Shown in pieces: positions 8,358 to 55,759 of a DNA stretch of 64,000 nt. The position numbers and the translations under genes were made by a program. The first letter of the stretch is position 1, and every line of letters starts with the position of its first letter. The DNA comes from Isurus oxyrinchus. Its lineage: Eukaryota. The DNA lies in contig JANJGN010000026.1 in assembly GCA_026770705.1 (NCBI GenBank), forward strand, positions 3,224,001 to 3,288,000, read 5' to 3'. The notes under the pieces were generated by a model. The model did not search any database. It was not told the DNA's origin and saw only the letters and a list, made by a program, of their open reading frames with translations.

Positions 8358-10060
8358 AAAAGTGTTGAACGAATACTTCTCATCTGTCTTCATCCAAGAG
8401 AATGAGGATGAGGATATCGAACTCATGGAGAGAGATTGTGAGCTTCTTAAGCAAATTAACATAGGGAGTGACAAGATATTGGAGTTGCTCACAGGCTTAG
8501 AAGTGGACAAACATCCAGGTCCAGATGATTTATGTCCCAAACTTCTGAGGGAGGCAGGTCTCTGACCCAAATCTTTAATTCCTCCCTGGCCACGGGGGAT
8601 GTGCCTGAGGACTGGAGAACAGCGAATATGGTTCTGCTATTGAAGAAGGGGTGTGGAAATAAGCCAGGAAACTGCACACCAGTGAGTCTCACGTCAGTGG
8701 TAGGGAAACTATTGGACAAAATTCTGAAGGAGAGAACCTATCTATACTTGGAGAGGCATGGAATTAACAGCATGGCTTTGTCAGAGGGAAGCCATGCCTA
8801 ACAAATCTGATTGAATTTTTTGAGGAGGTGACCAGGCATGTAGATGACGGTAACGTAGTTGATGTAATTTATGTGGATTTCAGCAAATCCTTTGACAAGT
8901 TCCCACATGGGAGACTTATACAGACAGTAAATGCGCATGGGATACAGGGTAATTTGATAAGGTGGATTCAAAATTGGCTTAGTTGTAGGAGACAGAGTGT
9001 GATGACAGAACGATTCTTTAGTGACTGGAAGCCAGCGTCTAGTGGCGCACCACAGAGATGTGTGCTGGGTCCCCTTTTATTTATCATTCATATAAACGGC
9101 ATATAAGACTATGTGGGGGGTATGATTAGTGAGTTTGCGGATGACACAAAGATTGGCCGGATGGTTAACAGTGAAGTTGAGTGTCTTCGGCTACAGGAAT
9201 ATATAGATGGGAAGGTCAAATGGGCAGATAAGTTCCGGATGGAATTTAACCCTGAAAAGTATGAGGTGATACACTTTGGAAGGAGTAATTTGACAAGGAA
9301 GAATTTAATGAAAAGCATGACACGAGGATGTTCTGAGGAACAAAGGGGCCTTGGCGTGTGTGTTCCTAGATGTCTGAAGGCGGAGGGGCATGTCCGTCAG
9401 GTGGTGAAAAAGGCATATGGACACTTGCCTTTATCAATCGACGCATAGATTACATAAGTAGGGAGGTCATCTTGGAGTTGTACAGAACCTTGGTGAGGCC
9501 ACAGCTGGTGTGATGTGTGCAGTTCTGGTCGCTACATTATAGGGAGGATGTGACTGCACTGGAGGGGGTGCAGAGAAGATGCACCAGGTTGATGGCTGGG
9601 ATGAAACATTTAAGTTATGAAGAGAGGTTGGAGAGATTTGTTTGTGTTCGTTGGAGCAGTGAACACTGAGGGGCAACCTCATCGAGGCGTACAAGATTAT
9701 GAGGGGCATATACAGGGTGGATAGGGAGCAGTTGTTCCCCTTAGTTGAAGGGTCAGTCACGAAGGGACCTAAGTTCATGGTGAGGGGCAGGAGGCTTAGG
9801 GGGGATGTGAGAAAAAACTATTTTACTCAGAGGGTTGTGACAGTCTGGAATGCACTGACTGGGAGAGTGATGGAGGAGGGTTGCCTCACATCCTTTGAAA
9901 GGTATCTGGATGAGCACTTGGCACATCATAACATTTAAGGCAATGGGCCAAGTGCTGGTAAATGGGATTAGATAGGTAGATCAGATGTTTCTCACGTGTC
10001 AGTGCAGACTCGATGGGCCGAAGAGCCTCTTCTGCACTGTGTGATGCAGTGATTCTGTGA
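8358..10060 (+). mobile_element. 5'-truncated CR1-type LINE (frameshifted ORF2)
   Basis: LNEYFSSVF, PGPD, VPEDWRTAN, YVDFSKSFDK, FADDTKIG and FTQRVVTVWNAL motifs; ends in a GATTCTGTG-type tail. Confidence 0.9.
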
Positions 10061-10219
10061 AATTCAGGAACCAAAACTGTAGACAGTGCACCAGGTGCGG
10101 CCTCACCAAAAAGACTTCCCTATTTTTAAGCCACAACCCCTTAGCAATACAGACCAAAATTCCATTTGCCTTCTTAATCACTGGTTGCACCTGTTTGATA
10201 ACTTTGTTTTGGTGCTTCA

Positions 10220-11642
10220 TGCAAAATGTTGTTCCACTGTTTAAGAAGGGTAGCAGGGATAACCCAGAAAATTACAAGCCGGTGAGCCTTACTGGTGAGT
10301 GGTCGGAAAATTATTGGGGAAGATTCTTCATGACTGGATTTACTACCATTTGGAAGCAAACGGATTAATTGTGAGAGGTAGCATGTTTTTTTGAAGGGAA
10401 CGTTGTGTCTCACTAACTTGACCGAGTTTTTCGAGGAAGTGACAAAGATGATCAACGATGGAAGGGCAGTGGATGTTATCTACATGGATTTCAGTAACAG
10501 CTTTGACAAGGTCCCTCATGGGAGATTGGTACAGAAAGTAAAGACACACGGGATCAGAGGTGACCTGGCAAGATGAATACAGAATTGGCTTGGTCATAGA
10601 AGATCGAGGGTAGAAGTGGAAGGGTGCTGTTCTGAATGGAGAGCTGTGATTGGTGGTGTTCCGCAGGGGTCAGTGCTGGGACATTTGCTGTTTGTAGGAT
10701 ACGTACGTTATTTGGAGGAAAGCGTTACTGGGCTAATCAGTAAGTTTGAAGATGACACTAAGGTTGGAGGAGTTGCAGATAGTAAAGAGGATTGTGAAAG
10801 GATGCAACAGGATATAGATCGGTTGGAGATTTGGGTGGAGAAATGACAGAGTTTAATCTGGACAAATGCGAGGTAATGCATTTTGGAAGGTCTAATACAG
10901 ATAGTAATTATACAGTAAATGGCAGAAACTTTGAGTGCATCGACGGGCAGAGGGATCTGGCTGTACAGATCCACAGGCCACTGAAAGAGGCAACACAGTT
11001 GGATAACGTAGCCAGGAAGGCATATGGCATACTTGCCTTCATCGGCAGGGGCATTGAGTTTAAAAGCCTGGAAGTCATGCTGCAGCTGTATAGAACCTTG
11101 GTTAGGCCACACTTGGAATATTGCGTGCAATTCTTGTCGCCACATTACCAGAAGGATATGAAGGCATTGGAGAGGGTGCAGAGGAGGTTTTCCAGGATGC
11201 TGCCTGGTCTGGAGGTTATTAGCTATGAGGAGAGGTTGGAGAAACTCGGATTTTTCTCACTAGAGCGAAAGAGATTGAGGGGCGACTTGATAGAAGTTTA
11301 CAAAATTATGAGTGGCATGGACAGAGTATACAGTCAGAAGCTTTTTCCCAGGGTGGAAGAGTCAATTACTAGGGGACATAGATTTAAGGTGAGAGGAGAA
11401 AACTTTAGAGGAGATGTGTGGGGCAATTTTTTACCCAGAGGGTAGTGAGTGTCTGGAATTTGATGCTGGTACGATAGCGGTGCTTAAGAGGCAGCTTGAC
11501 AAATACATGAATGGTATGGGAATAGAGGGATACGGACTCCAGAAGTGCAAAATGTTTTCGTTTGACAGGCAATATGATCGGCGCAAGCTTGGAGGGCCGA
11601 AGGGCCTGTTCCTGTGCTGTACTTTTCTTTGTTCTTTGTTCT
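10220..11642 (+). mobile_element. 5'-truncated CR1-type LINE
   Basis: NVVPLFKKG, MDFSNSFDKVPH, GVPQGSVLG and LYRTLVRPHLEYC motifs; (TGTTCTT)n-like tail. Confidence 0.9.
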
Positions 11643-34334: not shown

Positions 34335-35790
34335 CAGAATCACAAGATCATAATGGCACAGAAGGACAGAATGGCACATCTTGACGGCACTGGCTCCCCA
34401 AATGAGCATAACGACTGGGTGTCATTGTCCTGCCTTTGCCCTGTACCCCTGCATTTTGTTTCTATTCAAATAAATATCCCATGCCCTCTTGAACCTCCAT
34501 TGAACCTGCCTCCTCCATATTTCTAGGCAGCACCTTCCAGGCCCGAACCACTGTTTTGTGAAAGCGTTTTCTCTCATGTCGCATTTGCTTCATTTGCAAA
34601 TCACTTTAAGTCTGTGTCCTCTCGTTCTTTATCCTTTAACGACGGCAATAGCTTCTCCTTATCTAATCTATTCAGGTTCCTCGTGATTTTGAACATCTCT
34701 ATCAAATCCCCTCTTAGCCTTCGTCTCTCCAAGGAGAACAATCCCAATCTCTTCAATCTACCCACATAGCTGAAGATTCTCATCCGTGGAACCATTCTTA
34801 TAAACCTCTTTTGTACTCTCTCCAATCTGTTTACATCTTTCCTATAATGTTGCACCCAGAACTGTACACAATACTCCAGCTGAAGCCTAGTGAGAGTCGT
34901 ATATGAAATCAGCTAGCCTCCGTGCTCTTGTATTTTATGCCCCTATTAACAATACCCAGTATACGATCTGCTTTATTAACTGCTATCTCCACCTGTCCTG
35001 TCAGATTCAATTATCTGTGCACATATACACTACAGGTCTTTCTGCTCCTGCACCCTCTTTAACATTTTATCCCTTATTTTATACTGCCTGTACATGTTCA
35101 TCCTATAAAATATAACATTTCACACTTGTCTGCATTGAACATCATCACTTATCTCCCCAGTCCATCAACTTGGCTATGCCCTCTTGAAGTTCTGCACTGT
35201 CCTCCTCGCTGTTTACAACACTCTCAAGCTAAGTATCATCCACAAGCGTTCAAATTCTCCCCTGCACACCAACATTTAGATCATTAACATATATCAGGAC
35301 AAGCAAGGGTTCCAATGCCGACCCCTGGGGAACTCCATTGCAAACCTCCCTCCAGTCGGCAAAATATCCATTGACCATTAGTCTCTGCCTCCTCTTTTTT
35401 TTCAGATAATTTTGCATCGATGTTGAACTATCCCTTTTATTCCATGAGCAAAACTTTTTTCACAAGTCTGCTGTTTGGCACTGTGTCAAATGCCTTTTGA
35501 AAGTCCATGTGCACTATTTAAACAGCATTGCCCTCATTGATCTTTTCTGTTGCCTCTTCAAATAACTCCAGAAAGTTCGTTAAACACGATTTCCCCCTGA
35601 GAAATCTATGCTGGCTCTTGCTTATCAACCATTATGTTTGCATGTGACTGCTTGTTCTATCCATAATAATTTTATTTTCTAAAATCTTGCCCACCGCTGA
35701 AGTTAAGCTGACTGGTCTGTAATTACTGGGCTTATTCTTACAACCTTTTTTGAACAAGGGCGTAATGCTTGCAATTCCCCAGCCCTTTTC
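34335..35790 (-). mobile_element. 5'-truncated CR1-type LINE
   Basis: LERVQKRFIRMVP...LGLFSLERRRLRGDLIEMFKI, plus GVPQG and DFQKAFD remnants on the - strand. Confidence 0.85.
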
Positions 35791-43300: not shown

Positions 43301-44889
43301 GTGGATGTCCTGGCATTTAATTTTCATTCACAGAATGTAGGTTTCGCTGGTTGGGCCAGCATTTATTGCCCATTCCTAATTGCCCTTGAGCTGGTGAGCG
43401 ACCATCTGGAACCTCTGCATTCCATGTGGTGTAGGTGCACCCACAGTGCTATTAGGGAAGAAGTTCCAGGAATTTCACCCAGCGACAGTGAAGGAAGGGC
43501 GATATATTTCCAAGTCAGGATGGTGCGTGTCCTGGAAGGGAAATTCCAGGTGGTGGAGTTCCCCTATATCTGGAGCCCTTGTCTTTCTAGATGGTAGTGC
43601 TTCTGTGCTTGGAAGGTGCTGTCGAATGAGCCTTGTTGAATTCCTGCAGTACATCTAGTAGATGGTGCCCACTGCTGCTACTGTGCTGTAGGGGGTAATT
43701 GTTCGTAGATGTGATGCCAATCAAGTGGGCGGTTTGCCTGGATGGTCTCCAGCTTCTTGAGTACTGTGAGAGCTGCACTCATTCAGGCATATGGGGAGAA
43801 TCCAATTATACTCCTGATTTGTGCTTTGTACATTGATGGACAGGCTTTGGGGAGTCAGGAAGTGAGTTTCTCGCCCCAGATTCCTAGCCTGTGGCCTGAT
43901 CTTGTAGTCTATGCATTTATATGCCTATTCTAGTTAAATTCCTGGTCAATGTTACCCCCCAGGATGTTGATACCTGGGGGATTCTGCGATGATAATGCCA
44001 TTGCACCTCAAGAGGCGGTGGCTAGATTCTCCCTTGCTGCTGATGGACATTGTGTGTCATTTGAGTGGCGCACTTGTTACTTGTTACTTGTCAGTCCCAG
44101 CCAGGTTATTGTCCAGGACTTGCTGCATTTGGACACGAACTGCTTCAGCATCAGAGGAGTCGCAAATTGTGTATTAACATTGTGGAATCATCAGCAAACA
44201 CCCCCAACTCGTAACTTATGATGAAAGGAAGGTCTTTGATGAAGCAGCTGAATATGGTTGGGCCAAGAATAGTACACTGAGGAACCCAGTGTTGTAGATG
44301 TACTGGAACAGCTTGGCTAGTGGTGTGGCAAGTTTTGGAGTACGAGTCTTCGGTTCTATTGACAGAATATTTTCAGGGACCATCGCCTTTGTACAATCCA
44401 GCGCCTTCAGCCTTTTCTTCAGATCACATGGCGTGAATGGAATTGGCTGAATACTGGCATGTGTGATTCTGGGGATGTCCAGACGAGGCCGAGATGGGTC
44501 ATCCACTGTGCACATCTGGCTGAAGATTGTAGCAAATGCTTCAGCCTTATCTATTGCACTGATGTGCTGGGCTCCTCCATCATTGAGGATGGGAATGCTT
44601 GTGCAGCCTCCTCCTACAGTGAATTGTTTAATTGTCCACCACGATTCACGACTGGATGTGGCAGGACTGCAGTGCTTAGATCTGATCCATTGGTTGCGGG
44701 ATCGCTTAGCTCTACCTATCACTTGCTGATTATGCTGTTTGGCACGCAAGTAGTCCTGTGTTATAGCTCCACCAAGTTGACACCTCTTTTTTAGGTTCTG
44801 GTACTGACATGCTCTCCTGAATTCTTCATTGAACTAGGGTTGATCCCCTGGCTTGATGGTAATGATACAGTGGGTGATATAGGGTCGTG

Positions 44890-45500
44890 GACTCATAGAA
44901 GTCGACAGCACAAAAGGAGGCCATTTAGCCCATCGTGTCTGCACCAGTCGGCAAAGATCTGACAACACTAATCCCATTTTCCAAAGCTTGGCCCATGGCC
45001 CCGGAGAACATGGCAATGCAAGTGAATATTTAAATACTTCTTAAATGTTATGAGATTTTCTGACTCAATCACCGCTTCAGGCAGTGAATTCCAGACTCCC
45101 ACCACCCCCGGGTGAAAGAATTTCTCCTCAACTCTCGTCTCAGCCTTCTACCTCTTACATTAAATCTATGCCCCCTGTTTTTGACCCCTCTACTGATGGA
45201 AAAAGTGCCTTCCTGTCCACCCTATCTATGCCCCTCATTCTTATATTCATCTGTCAGGTCCCCTCTCAACCTTTGCTGATCCGAGTAAAACAAACCCAGC
45301 CCATGCAATCTTTCCTCAAAGCTCAGACCCTGCAGCCCAGTGGATCCTCTCTAGTGCAATCACATCTTTCTATAATTTGACCAGCACTGTACACAGTATT
45401 CCAGTTGTGGTCTAACCAGCATCTTATACAATTCCAGAATAAAGTCCCTGCTGTCGTATTCTATGCTTCAGCTAATAAAATTAGTGTCCTACATGCCTTT
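44890..45500 (-). mobile_element. CR1 3'-end fragment inserted in the LINE
   Basis: CATAGAAGTCGACAGCACAAAAGGAGGCCATTTAGCCCATCG terminus, similar to 47950-48000. Confidence 0.7.
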
Positions 45501-45652
45501 ATTATGCTGGGCCATGAGGTTACATATTGCACTCGGGTACAATTCTGCTGCTGCTAATGAGCCACAGCACCGCATGGATACCCAGGCTTGACTTGCTAGA
45601 TCTGTTTGAAATCTACCACATTTAGGTAGTGCCACAAAACACGATTGGGGGG

Positions 45653-46228
45653 TGTTAGGGGAGAATATGGGGGACATTAAGAACTTATTGAAAGGGGATG
45701 GACTACTTAAAATATCCAAGCAGCTCGTGCCTGCAAGTATAGTAAAAGGCCAGGCTGGACAGAGAGGAATCTGAACCTTGCACACTCTCAGAGCCTGTGA
45801 CCATCAGCAAGGCCAGGCCGAACAGAGAGGAATGCACATGTGATAGATTGGGTGTTGGAGGGGTAAGACCGGAGCCTTAGGTTAAAAAACAACCAAGATT
45901 GGGTCTGTTTAGAGCAGATAGGGAAATAACAGATCGTACTAGTTGGGTTGGGAGGGAAGGTCTCCGCCGGGGGTGCAAGTAGGGACAGCTGAAGCCTGTA
46001 CTTTGGTACCTTTGTTACTAGAGAGATATATGTTTAATGTAAACAAATATGTCAGAATCTGGCAACTCTTCTTGTACATGATCAATAATGTATAAATATG
46101 GTGAACACTTGTAGTTTAGCAGAGTGCTATCTCAAACCGCATTGGTGGTCTCCTTTCAATTGCTCAAATAAAGGATTGTGACCTGTACCTAAGACTCCTG
46201 TGGTCTGTTTGTCAAAGTAACCACAACA
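45653..46228 (+). repeat. 5' LTR
   Basis: TGTTAG...ACAACA termini, TATAAATA 46091-46098, AATAAA 46167-46172; direct repeat of 54137-54722. Confidence 0.92.
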
Positions 46229-46231
46229 GTT

Positions 46232-46249
46232 TGGTGTAGTCAGCAGGAT
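46232..46249 (+). promoter_or_regulatory. Primer-binding site, tRNA-Ser type
   Basis: TGGTGTAGTCAGCAGGAT versus the complement of the vertebrate tRNA-Ser 3' end, TGGCGTAGTCGGCAGGAT (two CpG-type transitions). Lies 3 nt after the LTR. Confidence 0.85.
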
Positions 46250-46659
46250 ACTTGGATCGGATCCTCAGGGCAGCTCTGCAAAGTGGGTGAGTATATTTAT
46301 TTACCACCCTGGTTAGTGCAGTAAGCCTACCTGAGAACAGTCGGTCAAGTATCAAAGAATCGATAGGGCGACTCAGGACAGGAGATAGGAGGCGCCAGGT
46401 TAGGAGGCGGAGCCGAGCAGGCAGGCTAGCGGTGCCAAAGCTGCACAGGAAGGCCAGACCGCTACCAAAGGAGGCAGAGCTGTGCTGGCAGGTTACCGCT
46501 TGAAATATAACCATAACCAGAGCCGCGCAGGGAGGCCAGACCCCAGTTAAGTGGAGACGGAGCCGTGCTGGCGGGTAACGGTTTTAAATAAGCCTGAGCC
46601 AAAGCCACACAGGGATGCCAGACCCCAGTGAAATACCACAAGTAAGTAAGTTGTTGGGG

Positions 46660-47780
46660 CTGTGCAAATGCACCGTGCAGAGATAGACGGGAATAAGAAC
46701 AGAGTTCCGTCGGAGAAACAGAACAGTGCTATGGAACTCAACTGGGGAACCGTGGACTCCATTACAAGGTTTATAGCAGAACAGCAGTCCAAACTAAACA
46801 CAAAATTGCAGAACGAGAGGTGGAATCCACAGGGAACAAAAACAATGTTGTATAGAGCAGAAAAAGGACAAGGAAAAGAAAGGGGTGATTGTCATTATTA
46901 TCTTGTACCTGCAATTGTGCAGACGGTTTAATACTAAGTTCCAGTCGATTAGAGAAAGAGAGACAAAGTCAGATTCGGGACAGATCAGAGCAGTGGCGAC
47001 AACTTGTGGTGACACTGGTCAAGAGAAAGAGAGCTCCAATGGAGAAATCCATGATGGAGTAGGGACAAAACCGCCCTCATAACAACCAACCGCACCACTT
47101 TGCCTGATGAATCCCAAGGCCGCTGTGGCAGTAACTGTTAGGAAAAGTAAAGCCAGGAAAGGCTAATAAAAAACCGAAGGGAGAAAGGGGGCTGAGGAAT
47201 GGAGAGAGGACGAGGAGATGGAGAGTGTTACGAAGAAAGTTAAGCACGTACAATTCGGCCCGGGGGAGAAGCAGGTTTTGCTTCAAGCACTGCCAAGACT
47301 TAAAACTTGGCATAACAACCCAGACTTTTGAACCAAACTGGGGGAAATGCAAGATTTCCATGCAATGTACCCCCTTGATACCCAAATACTGATGAAGGCG
47401 AAGTGCCAGCGGATATTTGGGGAAGATTGCTCATACAGTTTAGAAGTGGTGACTGGGCAAAACCTGGGGGCAACCCAGATTGGGAGAAGGCGACAGCCCT
47501 GCACAGGGACTTTGAGGAGGCAGTTAAGGAAGCCTTGGGGGAGGAAGAGAGGAATTGGAGGGTGTATAATGTCCAGAGCGGTATGGCGAGATTTTCCTGC
47601 AAATGAGGAAGGATGATTGGGACCCGAAAGCTCCGGTACTGAATTTTCTGTAACTTAAAAATGAATTGATCTAAGTTAGAAGAGCTGGCTGTGCTGAAGA
47701 GAGAGAGAGAGAGAGGAAAGGGGGGTACCCCTAGGGGGTTAATAAGCACTGACAGGCAGTAGGAGGGGAAATGCGAGCTT
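46660..47780 (+). pseudogene. Putative decayed gag region
   Basis: Position after the PBS and leader, with fragmented purine-rich ORFs (e.g. WEKATALHRDFEEAVKEALGEEERNW). No diagnostic motif recognised. Confidence 0.45.
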
Positions 47781-47943
47781 TCGTGAGTTTCATGGACCCT
47801 ATAGGCTTCGAGATCCCTTTATTTCCCGAATTGCTATCTGAAGTTTCATTTAGAATATAACAGTTTTAAGCCAAGTTAGGGATACAGAAATATAAATACA
47901 TACTTCTAAATGTGTGTTTGTTTGTGTGCAAGGAAGCATTTGT

Positions 47944-50440
47944 ATAGAATCATAGAACCATATGAAGTTGACAGCACAGAAGGAGACCATTCGGCCCATC
48001 TTGTCCATGCCAGCCCGAGGACACTCAGGTGCCCTTTCTAATCCCACCTTCCTGCACCCGGCCCATAGCCCTGCAGCTTACAACACTTTATGTGCAGATC
48101 CAGGTACTTTGTAAAAGAATTTAAAGTTTCTGCCTCCACCACCAACTTGGGCAGTGAATTCCAGACACCCACTACCCTCTGCGTAAAAACGTTCTTCCCC
48201 ATGTCCCCCCGACACCTTCTGCCACTTATGCGCCCTGGATCTAGAATTCTCCATCAAGGGAAACAATTTTATCCTGTCCACTCTATCTATTCCCCTCATA
48301 ATTTTGTACACCTCAATCAAGTCACCTCTCAGCTTTCTTTGTTCTAAGGAAAATAACCCCAGCCTATCCAATCTCTCTCCTAGCTACAGTTTTCTAACCC
48401 CGGCAACATTCTTGTAAACCTCCTTTGCACTGTCTCTAGACCTATTACGTCCTTCCTGGAATGTGGTGACCTGAACTGCACACAATACTCCAGTTGTGGC
48501 TTCACCAGCGTTTTATACAATTCCAACATTATATCCTTACTTTTAGATTCTGTACCTCTGCCAATGAAGGAGAGCATTCCATATGCCTTCTTTACAACCT
48601 TGTCTACTTGAACTGCTGCCTTCAGGGACCTGTGTATTTGTACGCCAATATCTCTCACTTCATCTACCTCTCTTAGTATATTCACATTTATTCTGTGATC
48701 CCTGTAATTGTTTGATCTCCCTAAATGTACGACCTCACACTCCTCTATGTTAAAATCCATCTGCCACTTGATTGCCCACTCCACCAACCCATCTATATCG
48801 TTTTAGAGCTGATGGCTATCCTCTATGCTATCCAGTACTTGGCCAATCTTTGTGTCATCTGCAAATTTCCCAATCGTGCCCCGCATGTTCACATCCAAAT
48901 CTTTAATATATAACACAAACAGCAAGAGACCCAACACCAAGTCCTGTGAAACACCACTTGAGACAAATTTCCATTCACAAGGGCATCCATCGACCATTAC
49001 TCTTTGTTTCCCGTTAAAAAGCCAACATTTTGTCCAGTTTGCCACATTACCCTGAATCCCATGGGCTTTTACTTTCCTGACCAATCTGCCATGTGGGACC
49101 TTGTCAAATGCCTTGCTAAAATCCATGTATACAACATCCGCTGCATTACTTCATCAACCCTTCTTGTCACTTTCTCAAAGATTTCAATCAAATTTGTGAG
49201 GCAAGACCTTCCTTTGACAAATCCATGCTGACCATCCTTGAGTAGCCTATGCCTTTCCACATGATGGTTAATCCTATCTCTCAGGATTGATTCTACTAAT
49301 TTGCTCACCACCAATGTAAGACTAACTGGCCTATAATTGTTCGGCATTTCCTTTGATCCCTTTTTAAACAATGGAACTACGTTTGCATTTCTCCAGTCCT
49401 CCGGTACCTCCCCTGTATATGGTAAAGATTGGAAAATCATCCTCAGAGCATCTGCTATCTTCTCCCTGACTTCCTTCAGCAGCCTCAGAAACAATCCATC
49501 CGGCCCTGGCGACTTATAAACTTTCAAGGATTTCAACCGTTCCAGTACTTCCTCTTTCTTTATGAATATCCCGTCCAGTATCTCGCAGTGTTCCTCCTGG
49601 ACTACTGTATCTATGTCCTCCCTTTCCTTTGTAAACACGGAGATGAAATATTCATTCAAAACCCTTACCATCGCCTCTGCATCTGCACAGAAGTTTCCAT
49701 CTTCATCTCTGATAGGTCCCACTTTTTCCTTAACTAATAATGTATTGGTAAAACATCTCGGGTTATCTTTAACTTTACTGGCTAATCTTTTTTCATGCCC
49801 TCTCTTTGATTTCCTTATTTCCTATTTTACTTTGTCCCTGCACTTCCTATATTCGTGTGGGCTATCTGCAGTGCTTAGTTCTTTGTGCCTATTGTACGCT
49901 TTCTTTTTATGTTTGCTCTTCCCCTGTATTCCTCTAGACAACCAGGGAGGTCTATATTTAGCAATACCACTCTTATTTTTGACGGGGACATATCTACTTT
50001 GTACAATTAGGATCTCGCTTTTTAGTGATTCCCACTGGTTTTCCACTGTTTTATCCTCCAGCTTTGCTGTCCAGTCCACCTCAGACAAGTCCCTTCTCAT
50101 TTCTGCAAAATTTGCTGTCCCCCAGTTCAAACCTTTTCTCTGTCCTTTTCCATGGTAATGCTAAATCTAACTGAATTGTGATCACTGTCCCCGATATTGT
50201 CGCCAACTGTCACATCACCAACTTGCCCGTCTTCGTTCCCCAAGACAAGGTCTAGAATTGCATCTCCTCTCATTGGGTTTGTCACTGATTGGTTGAAAAT
50301 CTTTCCTGGACACACTGCATGAATATTGCTCGCTCAGTGCACCATATGTTGTTTGAATCCCAGTTGATATTAGGATAGGTGAAGTCTGCTACTATAATTG
50401 CCCTCTTGTTCTTACAAGGAGAAATTTGCCTCCATGTTTG
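47944..50440 (-). mobile_element. Relatively well-preserved CR1-type LINE inserted inside the LTR element
   Basis: Long ORF2 pieces: PMRGDAILDLVLGN, LNEYFISVFT, VPEDWRNANVVPLFKKG, MDFSKAFDKVPH, FADDTKIG, LYKTLVKPQLEYC. Tail reads as CATAGAA repeats at ~47945. Confidence 0.93.
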
Positions 50441-52109
50441 TGCCTCTCACATATGTGAGCTTTAATGTGTTTTCTTCTGCAAATTGTCATTTGTATGTGT
50501 AGCTCAGCACTTTAGGGCTGAAATGCCCATGTTAGATTAAAGGAAAAGTACACTAAAATATCCAAAGTTTTGAGTATAAGGATTGAGTTGAGATTTCTGG
50601 CAAAAAGGATCGCAATTTGACGGTATCATGAAGCTAGGCAGGGTTTGATGACCCAAAATCTTTGTACCTAAAACCCCCTTGCAGACTAGCATTACCAGCT
50701 TCCAAGTTGACTGGGATTGATACAGACGAGTTGCATTAACTGATAAGAATTCGCATTCTAAAATTATGAAGGAAAAAAGGTTACCTGAAGTTTAAGGAAT
50801 TCTAGGAAAACAAAAATGCATAAACACACGGTCTAAAGTGGTTCCAATGGATAAAAAGGGGTTTCCTTTGTAGAGATGAATTCAATATGAAAGGAAATCT
50901 GCATGCAAACAGCACTGTTCTTTGAAGTTGGGAAATGGCTTGAGATGCAAACTGCAGTGTAATTTAACAGGTTACTTCGAATAACGAGGATGCTATCCAA
51001 AGGTAAAGAATGTGTCAATAAACATACGAGAATTATAACTTGGATGCAAACCAATACACAGAAGAAAGAGGTAGTTTTAATTTTGATAGCGTAAATTACA
51101 TTTCTTACAAAGTTTAAAATGTTGAGGTTTGGTTCCTGATAATTTCTGAAAAGGGAATTTTCATTTTAAAAGGTTTGACTACAATTGTCACTAATTCAAA
51201 TGCTGCAAGCGTTTGTATTTGTAAGTCTGTTCCCAACATATGAATCTAAGCTCAAGACCTTTACAAAGTTTGGCAGAAATCCAATTTTTGGCTGAGTTAA
51301 TGAATCTTGGATAATTCTAAGAAGCGAGTCAGACACAATTTAGTGGAATACATTTGAGACAAGAAAATGTTGTTTGAGAAGAAGATAAGGAACATGTCAA
51401 TGTCTGATTTCTGTTTTTAAAACTGTTATATTTTATTTATTTTAAAGTCTCTCCAGGCAACATGAACAAGATAAGATGGTAGCTGTTGCATGTGTGAAAT
51501 GGCATGAGGCAAATAGGAGAAATAGTTAGAGAAAGACAACACTATATACAAACTGTTTTAAGGGAACTGAATTTGATAATCTGGCCATCAGCTGAAACAT
51601 TGGAAACGCACAGGGGGAGAGAAGCAAAGATCTAGAGACAGAGATGATCCTTGGTGACATAGAATAGTTAATACAGCCTAAAGAGCAAGGAAACATTATA
51701 AAAGATCAAGAAAATAGAGAAACTGACATCAAGAGAACCTTAGGATGATCATGGTCAGGGGAAAAAAACGTAGAGGTAAAACTATGTGGAATCTGTAGTT
51801 CAGGAATTGAAATGTAAGGAGAAATAATAATTAACATCAATATACCACAAGGATATAAGTAAAGGGAAAGCTGTAAAAAGGCGAAATAGATGTATTACTG
51901 ATTGTATTATTGTGCCTGTGAACTACAAAAAGTAAGACCACAGGATTAACACTATGGTGACAGGCAGTTAAGCGGCTCACAGAGAGAACAGTCACTGGAA
52001 GTGAAGAAACTGAGCCATTGAAAGATAGGATAAGAAGGTGAACTGTAGAGTTGTATAGGCAGTTTAATGAATTTAGGTCCGACGAGGGACAGCAGCAGGA
52101 GACAGTAGA

Positions 52110-52375
52110 TTAGTTGGAGTGGAGGGTGTTTATCCAGATGGATTCAGATCAGGGAACTCATTTCACAGGAAGAGTTATTAAAGAAATGTATATATTTAAA
52201 TATAAACAGAGATTTCACATTCCCTACCAGCCAAAGAGCTCGAGGATGGTGGAAAGGGTGAACTGAGCTTTAAAAAAAATCAATCACAAAAGCAATTCAA
52301 GAGACAGAGAACAGCCCAATATTCTAATGCGCCTTAGGGCTACCACATGCAGTACCACCGGGTTCACCCACATCT
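52110..52375 (+). pseudogene. Integrase catalytic-core remnant
   Basis: Reads QMDSDQGTHFTGRVIKE...QRFHIPYQPKSSRMVERVN...ILMRLRATTCSTTGFTP, the second D and the E of a DD35E integrase. Confidence 0.88.
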
Positions 52376-52385
52376 ACTTTCACAG

Positions 52386-53954
52386 TCTGAGTAGAGATAA
52401 TTGAAACCTCTAAAACCGCACCAACTGACCCACCTTGTCCGACTATGCATCCAGGACCAACGAATGGTTTGGCGTTGGTTTATCAGAAGTTTTGTATGAC
52501 AATGTACACCACGAGCTGGTACCTATAGTCTTGAACATATCCAGGATTTCCCCACCCCTGTGGTGCTCAACCCATATTCGAGGACCATATCTGGCTCCAG
52601 TGGGCCCCCTGATGACCGAAGCATCTCAGTTCAATGGCGGGATGCTATCAGGCTTGGGAAAGAACCGCGTTAAGTGTAGCCTGATAAATGATGCCCCTAC
52701 GATATTCAATATAGGGGCATCAGTGGTTGATTCAGAACCAAGCAACTGTTGACCAGAAGGATGGACCCTGAGCTTTAAGCTGAAGGAGATTCAAGAGTGG
52801 GGACAGGAATTCATAACACCCAATTAAACACAGACCAGGACATGACATGGTTATTCCGCAGCCTGGCTGCCATGCTCGAAAGTCATGCGGGGACTATCAA
52901 CAATCTGATGGAAATAAGGAAAAATATTTCAGACAAAGTGAGCAGAAATGATGTTTTGATCTTGGGCACTGGAACAAGTCCGAGAAAATTTAAGACAGAT
53001 TAATGAAAGAGTAGTTCCCTTATGGGTAACTAATGAACATTTATGTAATCTTTCATGACACAAGGAGCATGACTTGACCGGTTGCCAGCTCAGACTTTTA
53101 ACATGCATATATAGAATGAATGTTGAATATATAATGAACAGTAATATGCTAATAGGCATTGTATCAGTAATGCCTGCCACACCTATGTCAACACCTGGCA
53201 GGACATTATATAAAATAGAAAATATTGGGATTATACAGGAGGATTATTATAGTAGGTATCCTGACATTCCACCATATGCCGTAGACATAGAAAGGACTAT
53301 ATTTAGCACCACTTTAGAAGAGTGTAGGATAGAGGCTACCGCAGTAGTATGCACACTCAATATATGAGCATGTGAAGCGAAGTGGATTTAAAGCAGCAGC
53401 AAACTGTACAATGGAAAACATATGGGCTGCAATAGAACTGACCCATGTTGCATACACGGGGAATAGGAGATATTCTACCACCATGTGGCAGCAAAAGATT
53501 CAAAACGGGAACAACCAGATATGCCCCATCCAATATCATTCAGTGTGCCTACACCCACAGGCGCCAGCAAGGATAGGGAAGGTGGAACTGGTCGAAATAT
53601 ACAACAGAGGAACGACTACAATTCAGGTCAAGGAAAGCCTTAAGGACAACCTGAGAGTATTTCAACCAATTATCCTATGAAATTCCCTTATTACCCGAGC
53701 ACCTAACCATGATTCGGAGACAGGCTCAGCAGATACACCGAACTTACAATGCACTGCAGCAGCAGGTTCGAGCCTTAAAAGAGGATATCGAGCAAATAGG
53801 TTTCTTGACATAGTGATGGTGCAACTGGGGCTCCAACATACAGATAAGCCCCTGGATTCGTATTATCTCCCATACCCTACTGATACTTCAACTGATATTT
53901 TTTATCTATCTAACATACTTGATTCGTTGCACCTGGAAGTCAAAAAAAATGTGA
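52386..53954 (+). pseudogene. env: Decayed env with class-I fusion-protein architecture
   Basis: Short N-terminal part; furin-like RVK(C, likely from R) at 52666-52677; hydrophobic SLINDAPTIFNIGASVVDS; helical segment; Cys-containing middle; heptad IRRQAQQIHRTYNALQQQVRALKEDIEQI; Trp-rich WCNWG; TM IISHTLLILQLIFFIYLTYLI; short tail. Several stops and frameshifts. Confidence 0.8.
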
Positions 53955-54124
53955 CACTGGGGGAGTTTTAACAGGAGAAGGAATTTGACAAGTCAGAGTT
54001 TTAAATTAAAGGACCAGATGGTCTGACCAGTACTTTTAACGCACCAAAGCTGGCTAACTGGCCAGTATTGATGGGTGGCGGTACCTAAAGGGACAGGCAG
54101 TACCACGGTAGTTGGCCAAGGGCC

Positions 54125-54136
54125 AAAAGGGAGAAG
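54125..54136 (+). promoter_or_regulatory. Polypurine tract
   Basis: AAAAGGGAGAAG immediately before the TG of the 3' LTR. Confidence 0.85.
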
Positions 54137-54722
54137 TGTAAGTGTGGAATATAGGGGTACATTAAGAACTTATTGAAAGGGAGTCGACTACTTAAAATAT
54201 CCAAGCAGCTCGTGCCTGCATGTATAGTTAAAGGCCAGGCTGGACAGAGAGGAATCTGAACCTTGCACACCCTCAGAGCACACCATCAGCAAGGCCAGGC
54301 CGAACAGAGAGTAATGCAACTATGTTACATTGGGTGTCTTAGGAGTCAGACCGGAGCCTTAGGTTGAAAAACAAAAAAGATTGGGTCTGATTATAGCAGA
54401 TAGGGAATGAACAGTTGGTCCTAGTAGAGATGGGAGGGAAGGGCTCCGCTGGGGGTGAAAGTAGGGACAGATGATGCCTATAATTTGGTACCTTTGTTAC
54501 TAGAGAGAAGTCTGTTTAATGTAAACCTATCTGTGAACGAGATTAGAATCTGGAAACTTTTCTTGTACGTGGTCAATGATGTATAAATATGGTGAACACT
54601 TGAAGTTTAGCAGAGTTCTATCTCAAGCTGCATTAGGATGGTTCTCTCCTGGCAATTGCTCGAAAAAATGATCGTGACCTGTACCTGAGACTCCTGTGGT
54701 CCGTTTGTCAGAGACGACAACA
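54137..54722 (+). repeat. 3' LTR
   Basis: TGTAAG...ACAACA termini, colinear with the 5' LTR, followed by GGGG and resumption of the host LINE. Confidence 0.92.
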
Positions 54723-55759
54723 GGGGCTATCCTCAATGTGAAAGAGGGGCTTTGGCTCCACAACGACTGTGGTGGTTGCTCCTACAGACACCGCATCTGT
54801 GGCAGGCAGGTTGGAGAGGATGAGGTCAATTATATTTTTCCCTCTTGTTGGTTCCCGCATCACCTGTCGCACTGCCAGTCTAGCAGTTATGTATTTTAAG
54901 ACCCGGCTAGCTCGGTCAATAGTGGTGCTACTTCCACACTCTTGGTCATAGACATTAAAGCCCACCTCCCAGACAACAGTTCGCGCCCTTGCAACCCTCA
55001 GCTTTTCCTCCAAGTTGTGCTCAACATGGGGGAAGTACTAATTCATCAGCATGACATTTCCTTGCTCATGTTTGACCTGATGCCATGAGATCTCATGGGG
55101 TCTGAAGTCAATGTTGCGGACCCCCAGACAGCTCCCTCCTGATTGCATACCACTGAGCCACCAACTCTGCTGGGCCTGTCCTGCGGTGGGACATGACATA
55201 TCCAGGGATGGTGATGATGGTGTTAGGACATTATCTGTAAGACATGATTCTGTGAGATTGATTATGTCAGGCTGCTGCTTAACTAGTCTCTGAGACAACT
55301 CTCCCAATTTAGGCTCCAGCCCCAAGATATTAGTAAGGAGGACTTTGCAGGGTCGACACGGCTGAGTTTGCCATTGTTGTTTCCGGTGCCGAGCCGAGAT
55401 CGAGGCCAAGTGATCCGTTCGGTTTTATTTCTGTTTGGTCTTTATAGCTGTTTGATACAACTGGGTGGCCTGCTCTTTCAGTGGGAAGTTAAAAGTCAAT
55501 CATATTGCTGTGGATCTGGAGTCACCTGTAGGACAGCAAACGTTCTTCTCATGAGGACATTAATAAACAAGATGGGTTTTTGCAATAATCCGGTTCATTA
55601 AGGTTTCATTAGCCTTCTAATTCCAGGTTTTGCTTTGAATTCAAATCCCACCATCTGTCGTGCCAGGACTCAAGCTCGGGTGCCCAGACCAATGTCCTAA
55701 ATCTCGGAATTAACGGTGCAGTAACTATACTACTACGCCATTGCCTCCCCTTGAACTAT

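Follow-up and report, generated by a model that had tools for sequence, protein, structure and literature searches.

The window, a 64,000-nucleotide stretch of Isurus oxyrinchus DNA (contig JANJGN010000026.1, positions 3,224,001 to 3,288,000), contains a dead, partly deleted provirus, a decayed fossil in which the order LTR-PBS-gag-IN-env-PPT-LTR can be followed through a later LINE insertion and a deletion between integrase (IN) and env. Its features are the following:

45649..45652, + strand: left candidate copy of the target-site duplication (TSD), GGGG; weak, within a G6 run
45653..46228, + strand: 5′ LTR, from comparison of the LTR pair; TG...CA
46232..46249, + strand: primer-binding site (PBS), presumably of tRNA-Ser type, 3 nt past the LTR
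46731..47600, + strand: broken gag remnant with a matrix-like start and a capsid-like part, from two colinear matches to the gag of the fish retrovirus L003
47943..50452, − strand: inserted 5′-truncated LINE, from an RVT_1 match and from element copies that do not carry the insert
50453..52110, + strand: AT-rich internal part of the element, in which protease, reverse transcriptase (RT) and RNase H are undetectable
52120..52368, + strand: integrase catalytic-core fragment, C-terminal part absent, from matches to solved integrases and to L003
52415..53948, + strand: broken env, from alignment to an intact shark Env
54125..54136, + strand: polypurine tract (PPT) of 12 purines, from the sequence
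54137..54722, + strand: 3′ LTR, from comparison of the LTR pair
54723..54726, + strand: right candidate TSD copy, GGGG, from the sequence

The paired LTRs and the PPT reported in a first-pass annotation are both confirmed. The LTRs end in TG...CA, are 87.7% identical across 569 sites and differ by 46 transversions and 24 transitions; a firm date was rejected, given that the K2P distance of 0.134 translates into ~30 My at a rate of 2.2e-9 and ~305 My at 2.2e-10. With 2 mismatches allowed, the PBS motif matches nowhere else in the window and in none of 100 shuffles; its tRNA-Ser label is presumptive. The TSD claimed earlier is present as GGGG on both sides, but the left copy lies inside a G6 run and is weak evidence. 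Rfam and tRNA searches returned no matches.

An antisense LINE of ~2.5 kb, which we take to be of CR1/L2 type and which had gone unmentioned in the first-pass annotation, interrupts the element and carries the sole RT in the span (RVT_1, E 3e-12). Other copies of the element join position 47942 directly to 50452/50453 in three DNA runs (10, 13 and 9 contigs), and tens of contigs per position cover 50453-52110 in other DNA runs; the window copy belongs to a multi-copy retrovirus family. Within 50453-52110, neither six-frame Pfam searches nor comparison with L003 pol detected a protease, RT or RNase H of the element, and a possible, decayed zinc-finger remnant near 51885-51923 does not exceed shuffles. 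Copies devoid of pol would spread in trans through the enzymes of an intact helper.

The env remnant aligns to an intact shark Env with 29.7% identity over 502 residues, interrupted by 5 frameshifts and 4 stops. It retains a Pro/Thr linker, an F2-like module, a cleavage site near 52670 and a long transmembrane (TM) subunit with a Cys cluster, heptad, Trp-rich segment and membrane helix. About 92 codons precede the cleavage position and about 425 follow it, in agreement with the ~95 and ~425 noted previously; the furin-like site proposed there holds as to position, the polybasic motif being degenerate in the window copy. Word-indexed searches with single pieces of the window env found nothing, and 4 of the 7 matches of another window-env search, being repeat proteins, were dropped.

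Intact relatives of ~700 aa define the native protein. All 13 matches are shark proteins from four genera, Chiloscyllium punctatum among the carriers (two of the 13 are the queries themselves), which agrees with the shark host proposed at the outset. Annotated Env proteins in the assemblies of Mustelus, Heterodontus, Chiloscyllium and Pristiophorus include XP_078074422 and XP_078084570. Their order is signal peptide, ~115-aa Cys-rich domain, Pro/Thr linker, 86-aa F2-like module, RxKR and a 462-aa TM subunit. With 237-239 residues before the cut, of which ~130 are extra compared with a signal peptide directly followed by a short F2, they do not support the idea that a short F2 and a long F1 form the native layout. 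The caveat that the 5′ end of env might be deleted was well placed: the window env has lost the signal peptide and N-terminal domain (the domain of an intact relative finds no match in the window, 27 of 60 shuffles scoring as high), and its N-terminal part is short because a deletion joined integrase to env. Between shark genera the N-terminal domain is 41-42% identical, against 59-69% for the core. Neither an immunosuppressive domain (ISD) nor CX6CC occurs in any of the seven shark Envs scanned, although the same patterns do find gamma and delta Envs; the absence of both motifs had been correctly noted. Together with a TM subunit far from the ~200 aa of gamma-type Envs, this supports the earlier proposal that the Env is not of gamma type and has a TM subunit of F1 size. 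An HMM of the shark Envs has no match among 296 viral ORFs, Pfam has none for the window pieces, the intact shark Envs or the Envs of walleye dermal sarcoma virus (WDSV) and snakehead retrovirus (SnRV), and no DNA locus of the family was found among the viral or metagenome contigs searched.

The nearest backbone found is that of L003, an intact fish endogenous retrovirus that encodes RNase H and whose IN tail is of MLV type. L003 gag aligns colinearly with the window gag in two regions picked after inspection (z 4.3 and 4.4; none of 200 shuffles as high in either), and it is not top-ranked among the 296 ORFs for the gag remnant. The IN core (52120-52368) matches solved integrases at E ~1e-5 and L003 with 41.6% identity (E 3e-12); among the 296 ORFs it scores best with L003 (155), followed by WDSV and WEHV (118-119) and SnRV (72). 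In the tree it forms a long branch that groups with L003 at 82/68 and with L003 plus WDSV at 83/81, with no well-supported placement. The RT of L003 joins that of SnRV at 90/87, a grouping flagged as long branches meeting. SnRV itself (L004, 10,688 nt, with the same RT as the SnRV row in Wang and Han) has an Env resembling the shark protein in its N-terminal extension, CP-x4-GP motif, F2-sized module, polybasic site, weakly hydrophobic fusion segment, long TM subunit and lack of ISD and CX6CC. It differs in carrying ~510 aa ahead of the F2-like module, against ~150 in the shark Env, in its distant IN and in an additional ORF downstream of env. Alignment of the shark profile with SnRV Env covers 277 columns (E 0.063); for the shark-only profile, 2 of 25 shuffles score as high. 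Lineage I of the elephant-shark CmiERV elements, SnRV-like by Pol (Han 2015, PMC4422223), is likewise chondrichthyan and has the PBS type and 3-nt spacer of the window, but differs in its gamma-type Env with ISD and CX6CC (supplement of PMC4422223, by eye), a gag with a long coiled coil and another IN tail. Gag, IN and PBS tentatively point to snakehead-like canonical retroviruses, and the lokiretrovirus label is unsupported. The element is, on balance, probably a member of a multi-copy shark family of snakehead-like canonical retroviruses (clade Huo) that bears a class Ib (F-type) Env extended by an N-terminal domain; no RT of the element survives, and the RT of L003 serves as a proxy.

A different backbone under the same F-like fusogen, that of an epsilon-like (clade Mu) shark retrovirus with a WDSV-type Env, is unlikely in our judgement. 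A 12,708-nt genome that we take to be WDSV (L065) gives the best full-length Env alignment, colinear over 435 columns at 24% identity (E 0.0016, 0 of 25 shuffles), in which the cleavage site, Cys positions, Trp-rich segment and membrane helix match. The window IN is second closest to WDSV and WEHV, groups with L003 and WDSV together, and the IN core of L003 is itself nearest WEHV and WDSV. Against this, IN and gag are nearer to L003, whose RT joins SnRV and not the separate RT clade of WDSV; the PBS is held in common with the SnRV-like CmiERV lineage I; and the 3′ LTR starts ~190 bp past the env match, too close to leave room for accessory ORFs of the kind WDSV carries there. WDSV Env differs further in its length (1225 aa), a second RKKR site and ~350 aa past the membrane helix.

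The first-pass annotation had proposed a chondrichthyan lokiretrovirus, which in the light of the intact relatives would have to have gained an N-terminal Env domain; we consider this quite improbable. Lokiretrovirus rows were compared by eye. Read in this way, the Env landmarks follow the same order as in lokiretrovirus Env, RxKR included, and the IN core is about as similar to one lokiretrovirus row (roughly 38%) as to L003 (41.6%). The SDQGTHFT-type integrase reported earlier is real as a core, but the motif does not discriminate because lokiretroviruses, L003 and WDSV (Epsilonretrovirus; DSDQGTHFT) all have it. Lokiretrovirus Envs are ~550 aa long, and in the seven with a visible N-terminus the F2-like module directly follows the signal peptide, with no N-terminal domain and with a classic, strongly hydrophobic fusion peptide, unlike the shark Envs. 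The one lokiretrovirus PBS read is of another type. The IN tail of one shark relative best matches gammaretroviral tails and is unlike that of lokiretroviruses, a soft marker given that the tail of CmiERV lineage I looks loki-like by eye. The earlier remark that no lokiretrovirus had been reported from sharks is also supported: the RT screen of Wang and Han was positive in none of six chondrichthyan genomes, C. punctatum included (PMC7947760, supplement Fig. S1). Rather than a lokiretrovirus, the element is probably a relative of the fish retroviruses of snakehead and walleye.

The shark Env is likely a fusogen of the paramyxovirus and pneumovirus F type with an added N-terminal domain. It has an F2-sized module, a furin motif and an F1-sized subunit that contains two heptads and, in its centre, a Cys-rich region, and the distance from cut to membrane is 404-408 aa, compared with 385-389 in three paramyxovirus F proteins, 390 in foamy Env, 385 in WDSV (second site, 472 to 857), 355 in SnRV and 145 in MLV. 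The ESM Atlas places it next to clusters of Baculo_F, Fusion_gly and Gypsy Env (0.91-0.94; one of two runs rated weak by the tool). A profile of shark, WDSV and SnRV Envs matches paramyxovirus F (E 7.8e-4; none of 25 block shuffles as high), the Cys clusters falling in register; the foamy match in the shuffle test is out of register, and gamma-type Env likewise exceeds shuffles along short stretches, heptad or membrane-proximal, both in this test (a control of 9 shuffles) and in that of the shark-only profile. The shark-only profile, run on 6 targets with 25 shuffles, does not exceed shuffles for F or foamy Env (15 and 10 of 25 as high; E 0.05), and with a crude PSSM the WDSV, SnRV and F proteins all fall within the shuffle range; an excess among 16 related foamy Envs was left uncounted, as these proteins are not independent. 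PDB sequence searches with env and gag were empty or gave chance matches, with no F match for Env, and AlphaFold2 models were unusable (pLDDT 31 and 37), four fold searches yielding no significant match. Support for the putative homology to F comes from the layout, from features of the language model and from alignments in the twilight zone, at the noise limit.

An unrelated class I fusogen with a convergent layout would account for the computed F comparisons being all weak or negative and for the weak hydrophobicity of the post-cut segment (0.4-0.5, against 1.4-1.7 in F), but language-model neighbours in the F/Baculo_F clan, a Cys cluster in register with F and matched subunit size make convergence very unlikely. 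Highly unlikely is a Ty3/Gypsy errantivirus-like element, as the Baculo_F and Gypsy Env clusters among the top Atlas neighbours and the F-type env reported in parts of bioRxiv 2023.10.26.564294 to be widespread in metazoan Ty3/Gypsy might suggest, since IN and gag are nearest to the retrovirus L003, with its RNase H and its IN tail of MLV type (among computed comparators without a Gypsy integrase), and those parts of the preprint do not mention sharks.

Foamy Env and the F proteins share an F1-sized TM subunit with the shark protein, their sequence similarity to it lying at the noise limit. F is described as a minimal scaffold that takes receptor-binding modules N-terminally or between subunits (Fernandez et al. 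2024, PMC11468914); F itself has no added domain, and foamy Env has its receptor domain between the subunits, plus a leader peptide. The foamy traits given in part of PMC5210030 (two furin sites in a long SU, accessory genes downstream of env, GGGTG where PPT and LTR meet and usually a tRNA-Lys PBS) contrast with a single furin motif, a lack of space for accessory genes and another border and PBS here, and PF03408 has no match with shark Env, though foamy Env gives one. In the intact shark Env, furin would cut at the polybasic site, receptor binding would fall to the variable N-terminal domain, which stands ahead of the fusion core as in coronavirus spike, and membrane fusion would follow from refolding of the F1-like subunit by way of its two heptads.

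The value of the locus lies in the family that the window copy indicates, not in the decayed copy itself. Wang and Han (2021, PMC7947760), who linked lokiretrovirus Env to PF00523, left open four scenarios for the origin of retroviral Env, partly because a similarity between lokiretrovirus and canonical Envs had gone unseen, and sections of Hogan and Johnson (PMC9967133) treat WDSV Env as a distinct, more recent development. We put forward tentatively, as a possibility, that one F-type fusogen family with differing receptor modules runs through all deep aquatic retrovirus lineages as the ancestral retroviral Env, with the shark Env as a bridge from the as yet unexplained Envs of WDSV and SnRV to lokiretroviruses, foamy viruses and paramyxovirus F; gamma-type Env would then have been swapped in later, as the contrast between CmiERV lineage I and the shark family suggests. 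A shark family with an open env that aligns to both WDSV and SnRV Env and has F-like features would place F-type fusogens inside the canonical fish retroviruses, and the scenarios for Env origin would become testable by structure and phylogeny. If this is true, the F-type entry protein is more widespread among fish retroviruses than published.

The element is a real but dead shark endogenous retrovirus (ERV). The paired LTRs, primer-binding site (PBS) and polypurine tract named in the first-pass annotation were all located, as was the core of the integrase (IN) it had claimed.

Features of the provirus (window positions)
45653-46228, 5′ LTR, from paired LTR comparison
47943-50452, minus strand, inserted LINE carrying the sole reverse transcriptase (RT) signal of the span
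52120-52368, integrase core
52415-53948, broken env, from alignment to an intact 701-aa Mustelus protein
directly before the 3′ LTR, polypurine tract of 12 purines
54137-54722, 3′ LTR, from paired LTR comparison

The PBS, which we take to be of tRNA-Ser type, lies 3 nt downstream of the 5′ LTR, is the sole match in the window and was recovered in 0/100 shuffles. The target-site duplication, GGGG on either flank, stood only as a weak candidate: its left copy falls within a run of G, and comparison with a single paralogous flank left it no more than that. The LTRs share 87.7% identity (569 sites), with 46 transversions versus 24 transitions distributed unevenly along the LTR (94%, then 85%), which suggests recombination of LTR variants or sequence errors. 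Each LTR contains a 25-bp direct repeat (45746-45770 and 45809-45833 in the 5′ LTR), possibly an enhancer duplication, and the leader ahead of gag (46435-46632) contains an imperfect tandem repeat of ~82 bp.

The sole RT signal in the span is antisense and forms part of the LINE. Contigs of three organisms (10, 13 and 9 contigs) join position 47942 to 50452/50453, which marks the LINE as a later insertion and the element as multi-copy; without the LINE the element measures ~6.56 kb. The LINE matches four further stretches in the window at 64-72% identity, and related copies there include 8592-11460, 34679-34882 and 44878-45479. Outside the LINE, the internal DNA yielded no detectable protease, RT or RNase H, and this stretch is covered by other copies at tens of contigs per position, from which we infer a pol-defective subfamily that would have spread in trans.

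Searched without a profile, a single env frame returned seven matches, of which three were real and four were rejected as repeat proteins. A second search recovered 13 proteins among 6,973 candidates, two of them queries, exclusively from sharks (Heterodontus 1, Pristiophorus 2, Mustelus 3 and Chiloscyllium 7, queries included). The window env aligns to the 701-aa Mustelus protein at 29.7% over 502 residues, with five frameshifts and four stops; residues 1-135 of that protein have no match in the window, indicating a deleted env 5′ end, as the first-pass annotation had cautioned. Intact Envs begin with a signal peptide and a Cys-rich domain; after a Pro/Thr linker come an 86-aa module opening with CP-x4-GP, an RxKR site at 237-239 and a TM subunit of 462 aa. 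Between genera the N-domain is 41-42% identical versus 59-69% for the core, which would fit a receptor-binding role for the N-domain. Neither an ISD nor a CX6CC motif, both earlier reported absent, occurs in any of seven shark Envs scanned with patterns that do detect gamma and delta Envs. Open env genes ~99% identical in Mustelus asterias and two 9-kb contigs (P0008, P0019, P0021, P0022) point to a family that is young in the M. asterias lineage.

The element probably works like an F-type enveloped retrovirus. The distance from cleavage site to membrane helix in shark Envs (404-408 aa) is near that of paramyxovirus F (385-389), foamy virus (390), walleye dermal sarcoma virus (WDSV, 385) and snakehead retrovirus (SnRV, 355), in contrast to 145 in MLV. 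The structural check proposed in the first-pass annotation gave no usable fold: both AlphaFold2 models of Env were poor (pLDDT 31 and 37), making fold searches uninformative. In the ESM Atlas the shark Env neighbours clusters of Baculo_F, Fusion_gly and Gypsy Env, and its landmarks follow those of lokiretrovirus Env (compared by eye with 8 of 23 lokiretrovirus rows). A combined shark, WDSV and SnRV profile matched 22 paramyxovirus F proteins in register at the Cys cluster (E 7.8e-4; block shuffles 0/25); gamma Env likewise exceeds shuffles, over short stretches. A shark-only profile did not rise above shuffles against F or foamy Env (E 0.05), a crude PSSM separated only the related foamy group, and Pfam and PDB sequence searches with the shark Env gave no match. 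Several weak lines, taken together, make homology of the shark Env to F very probable.

Smith-Waterman comparison over 296 ORFs placed foamy Env, WDSV Env, paramyxovirus F and SnRV Env as the top four, with low scores throughout. The RT of the SnRV locus (L004) is identical to the SnRV row of Wang and Han; the remaining viral loci, including the one that is presumably WDSV, were named with the help of layout, and one foamy Env was identified by Pfam. WDSV Env provides the longest colinear alignment to shark Env (435 columns, 24%, E 0.0016; block shuffles 0/25), confined to its residues 395-880, and SnRV Env aligns over 277 columns (28%, E 0.063; 2/25 shuffles reach its score). Shark, WDSV and SnRV Envs share an N-terminal extension and a CP..P motif 76-107 aa upstream of the cut, and these three and foamy Env all lack a classic hydrophobic fusion peptide (for WDSV, the value at its first site). 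Two RKKR sites (223, 472) occur in the WDSV Env (L065, 5962-9648), whose membrane helix near 857 is followed by ~350 further residues with additional hydrophobic segments.

The nearest backbone found is L003, an intact fish-type retrovirus on a metagenome contig. Its IN is 41.6% identical to the window IN, the best of 296 ORFs, and the gag remnant gives two colinear matches to it (z 4.3 and 4.4, regions picked post hoc) that are not top-ranked among ORFs. L003 (664-6009), like L001, carries an intact SnRV-like gag-pol, in frame across one TAG; no env is present on either contig. The L003 RT groups with SnRV (support 90/87, with a long-branch warning), and we lean towards an SnRV-like element. 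An epsilon-like backbone is the main rival, the L003 IN core being nearest WDSV and the walleye epsilonretrovirus WEHV. In the tree, no position of the window IN is well supported. The lokiretrovirus-like label was not supported, the element having come out negative in the lokiretrovirus Env test; Wang and Han (PMC7947760) record lokiretroviruses in 0/6 chondrichthyan genomes, in keeping with the first-pass statement that the lineage was reported from lampreys, bony fish and tetrapods rather than sharks. A Chiloscyllium gene model (P0011) with an integrase tail fused to env (residues 1-78) offers the sole view of the shark family's IN C-terminus. This tail matches gammaretroviral tails and is unlike lokiretroviral ones (compared by eye from published text), a marker that CmiERV lineage I of the elephant shark shows to be soft. 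That lineage, SnRV-like in Han 2015 (PMC4422223), has the same PBS and spacer as our element but an Env that is gamma-type by eye (CmiERV scaffold 2), a hint that shark ERVs may have exchanged their env genes.

A literature search that reached few subscription papers or bioRxiv supplements showed no published description of F-type Envs for shark ERVs, WDSV or SnRV, and Viro3D tables may already hold such links. The shark family is a possible bridge between the Envs of WDSV and SnRV and the class Ib fusogens.
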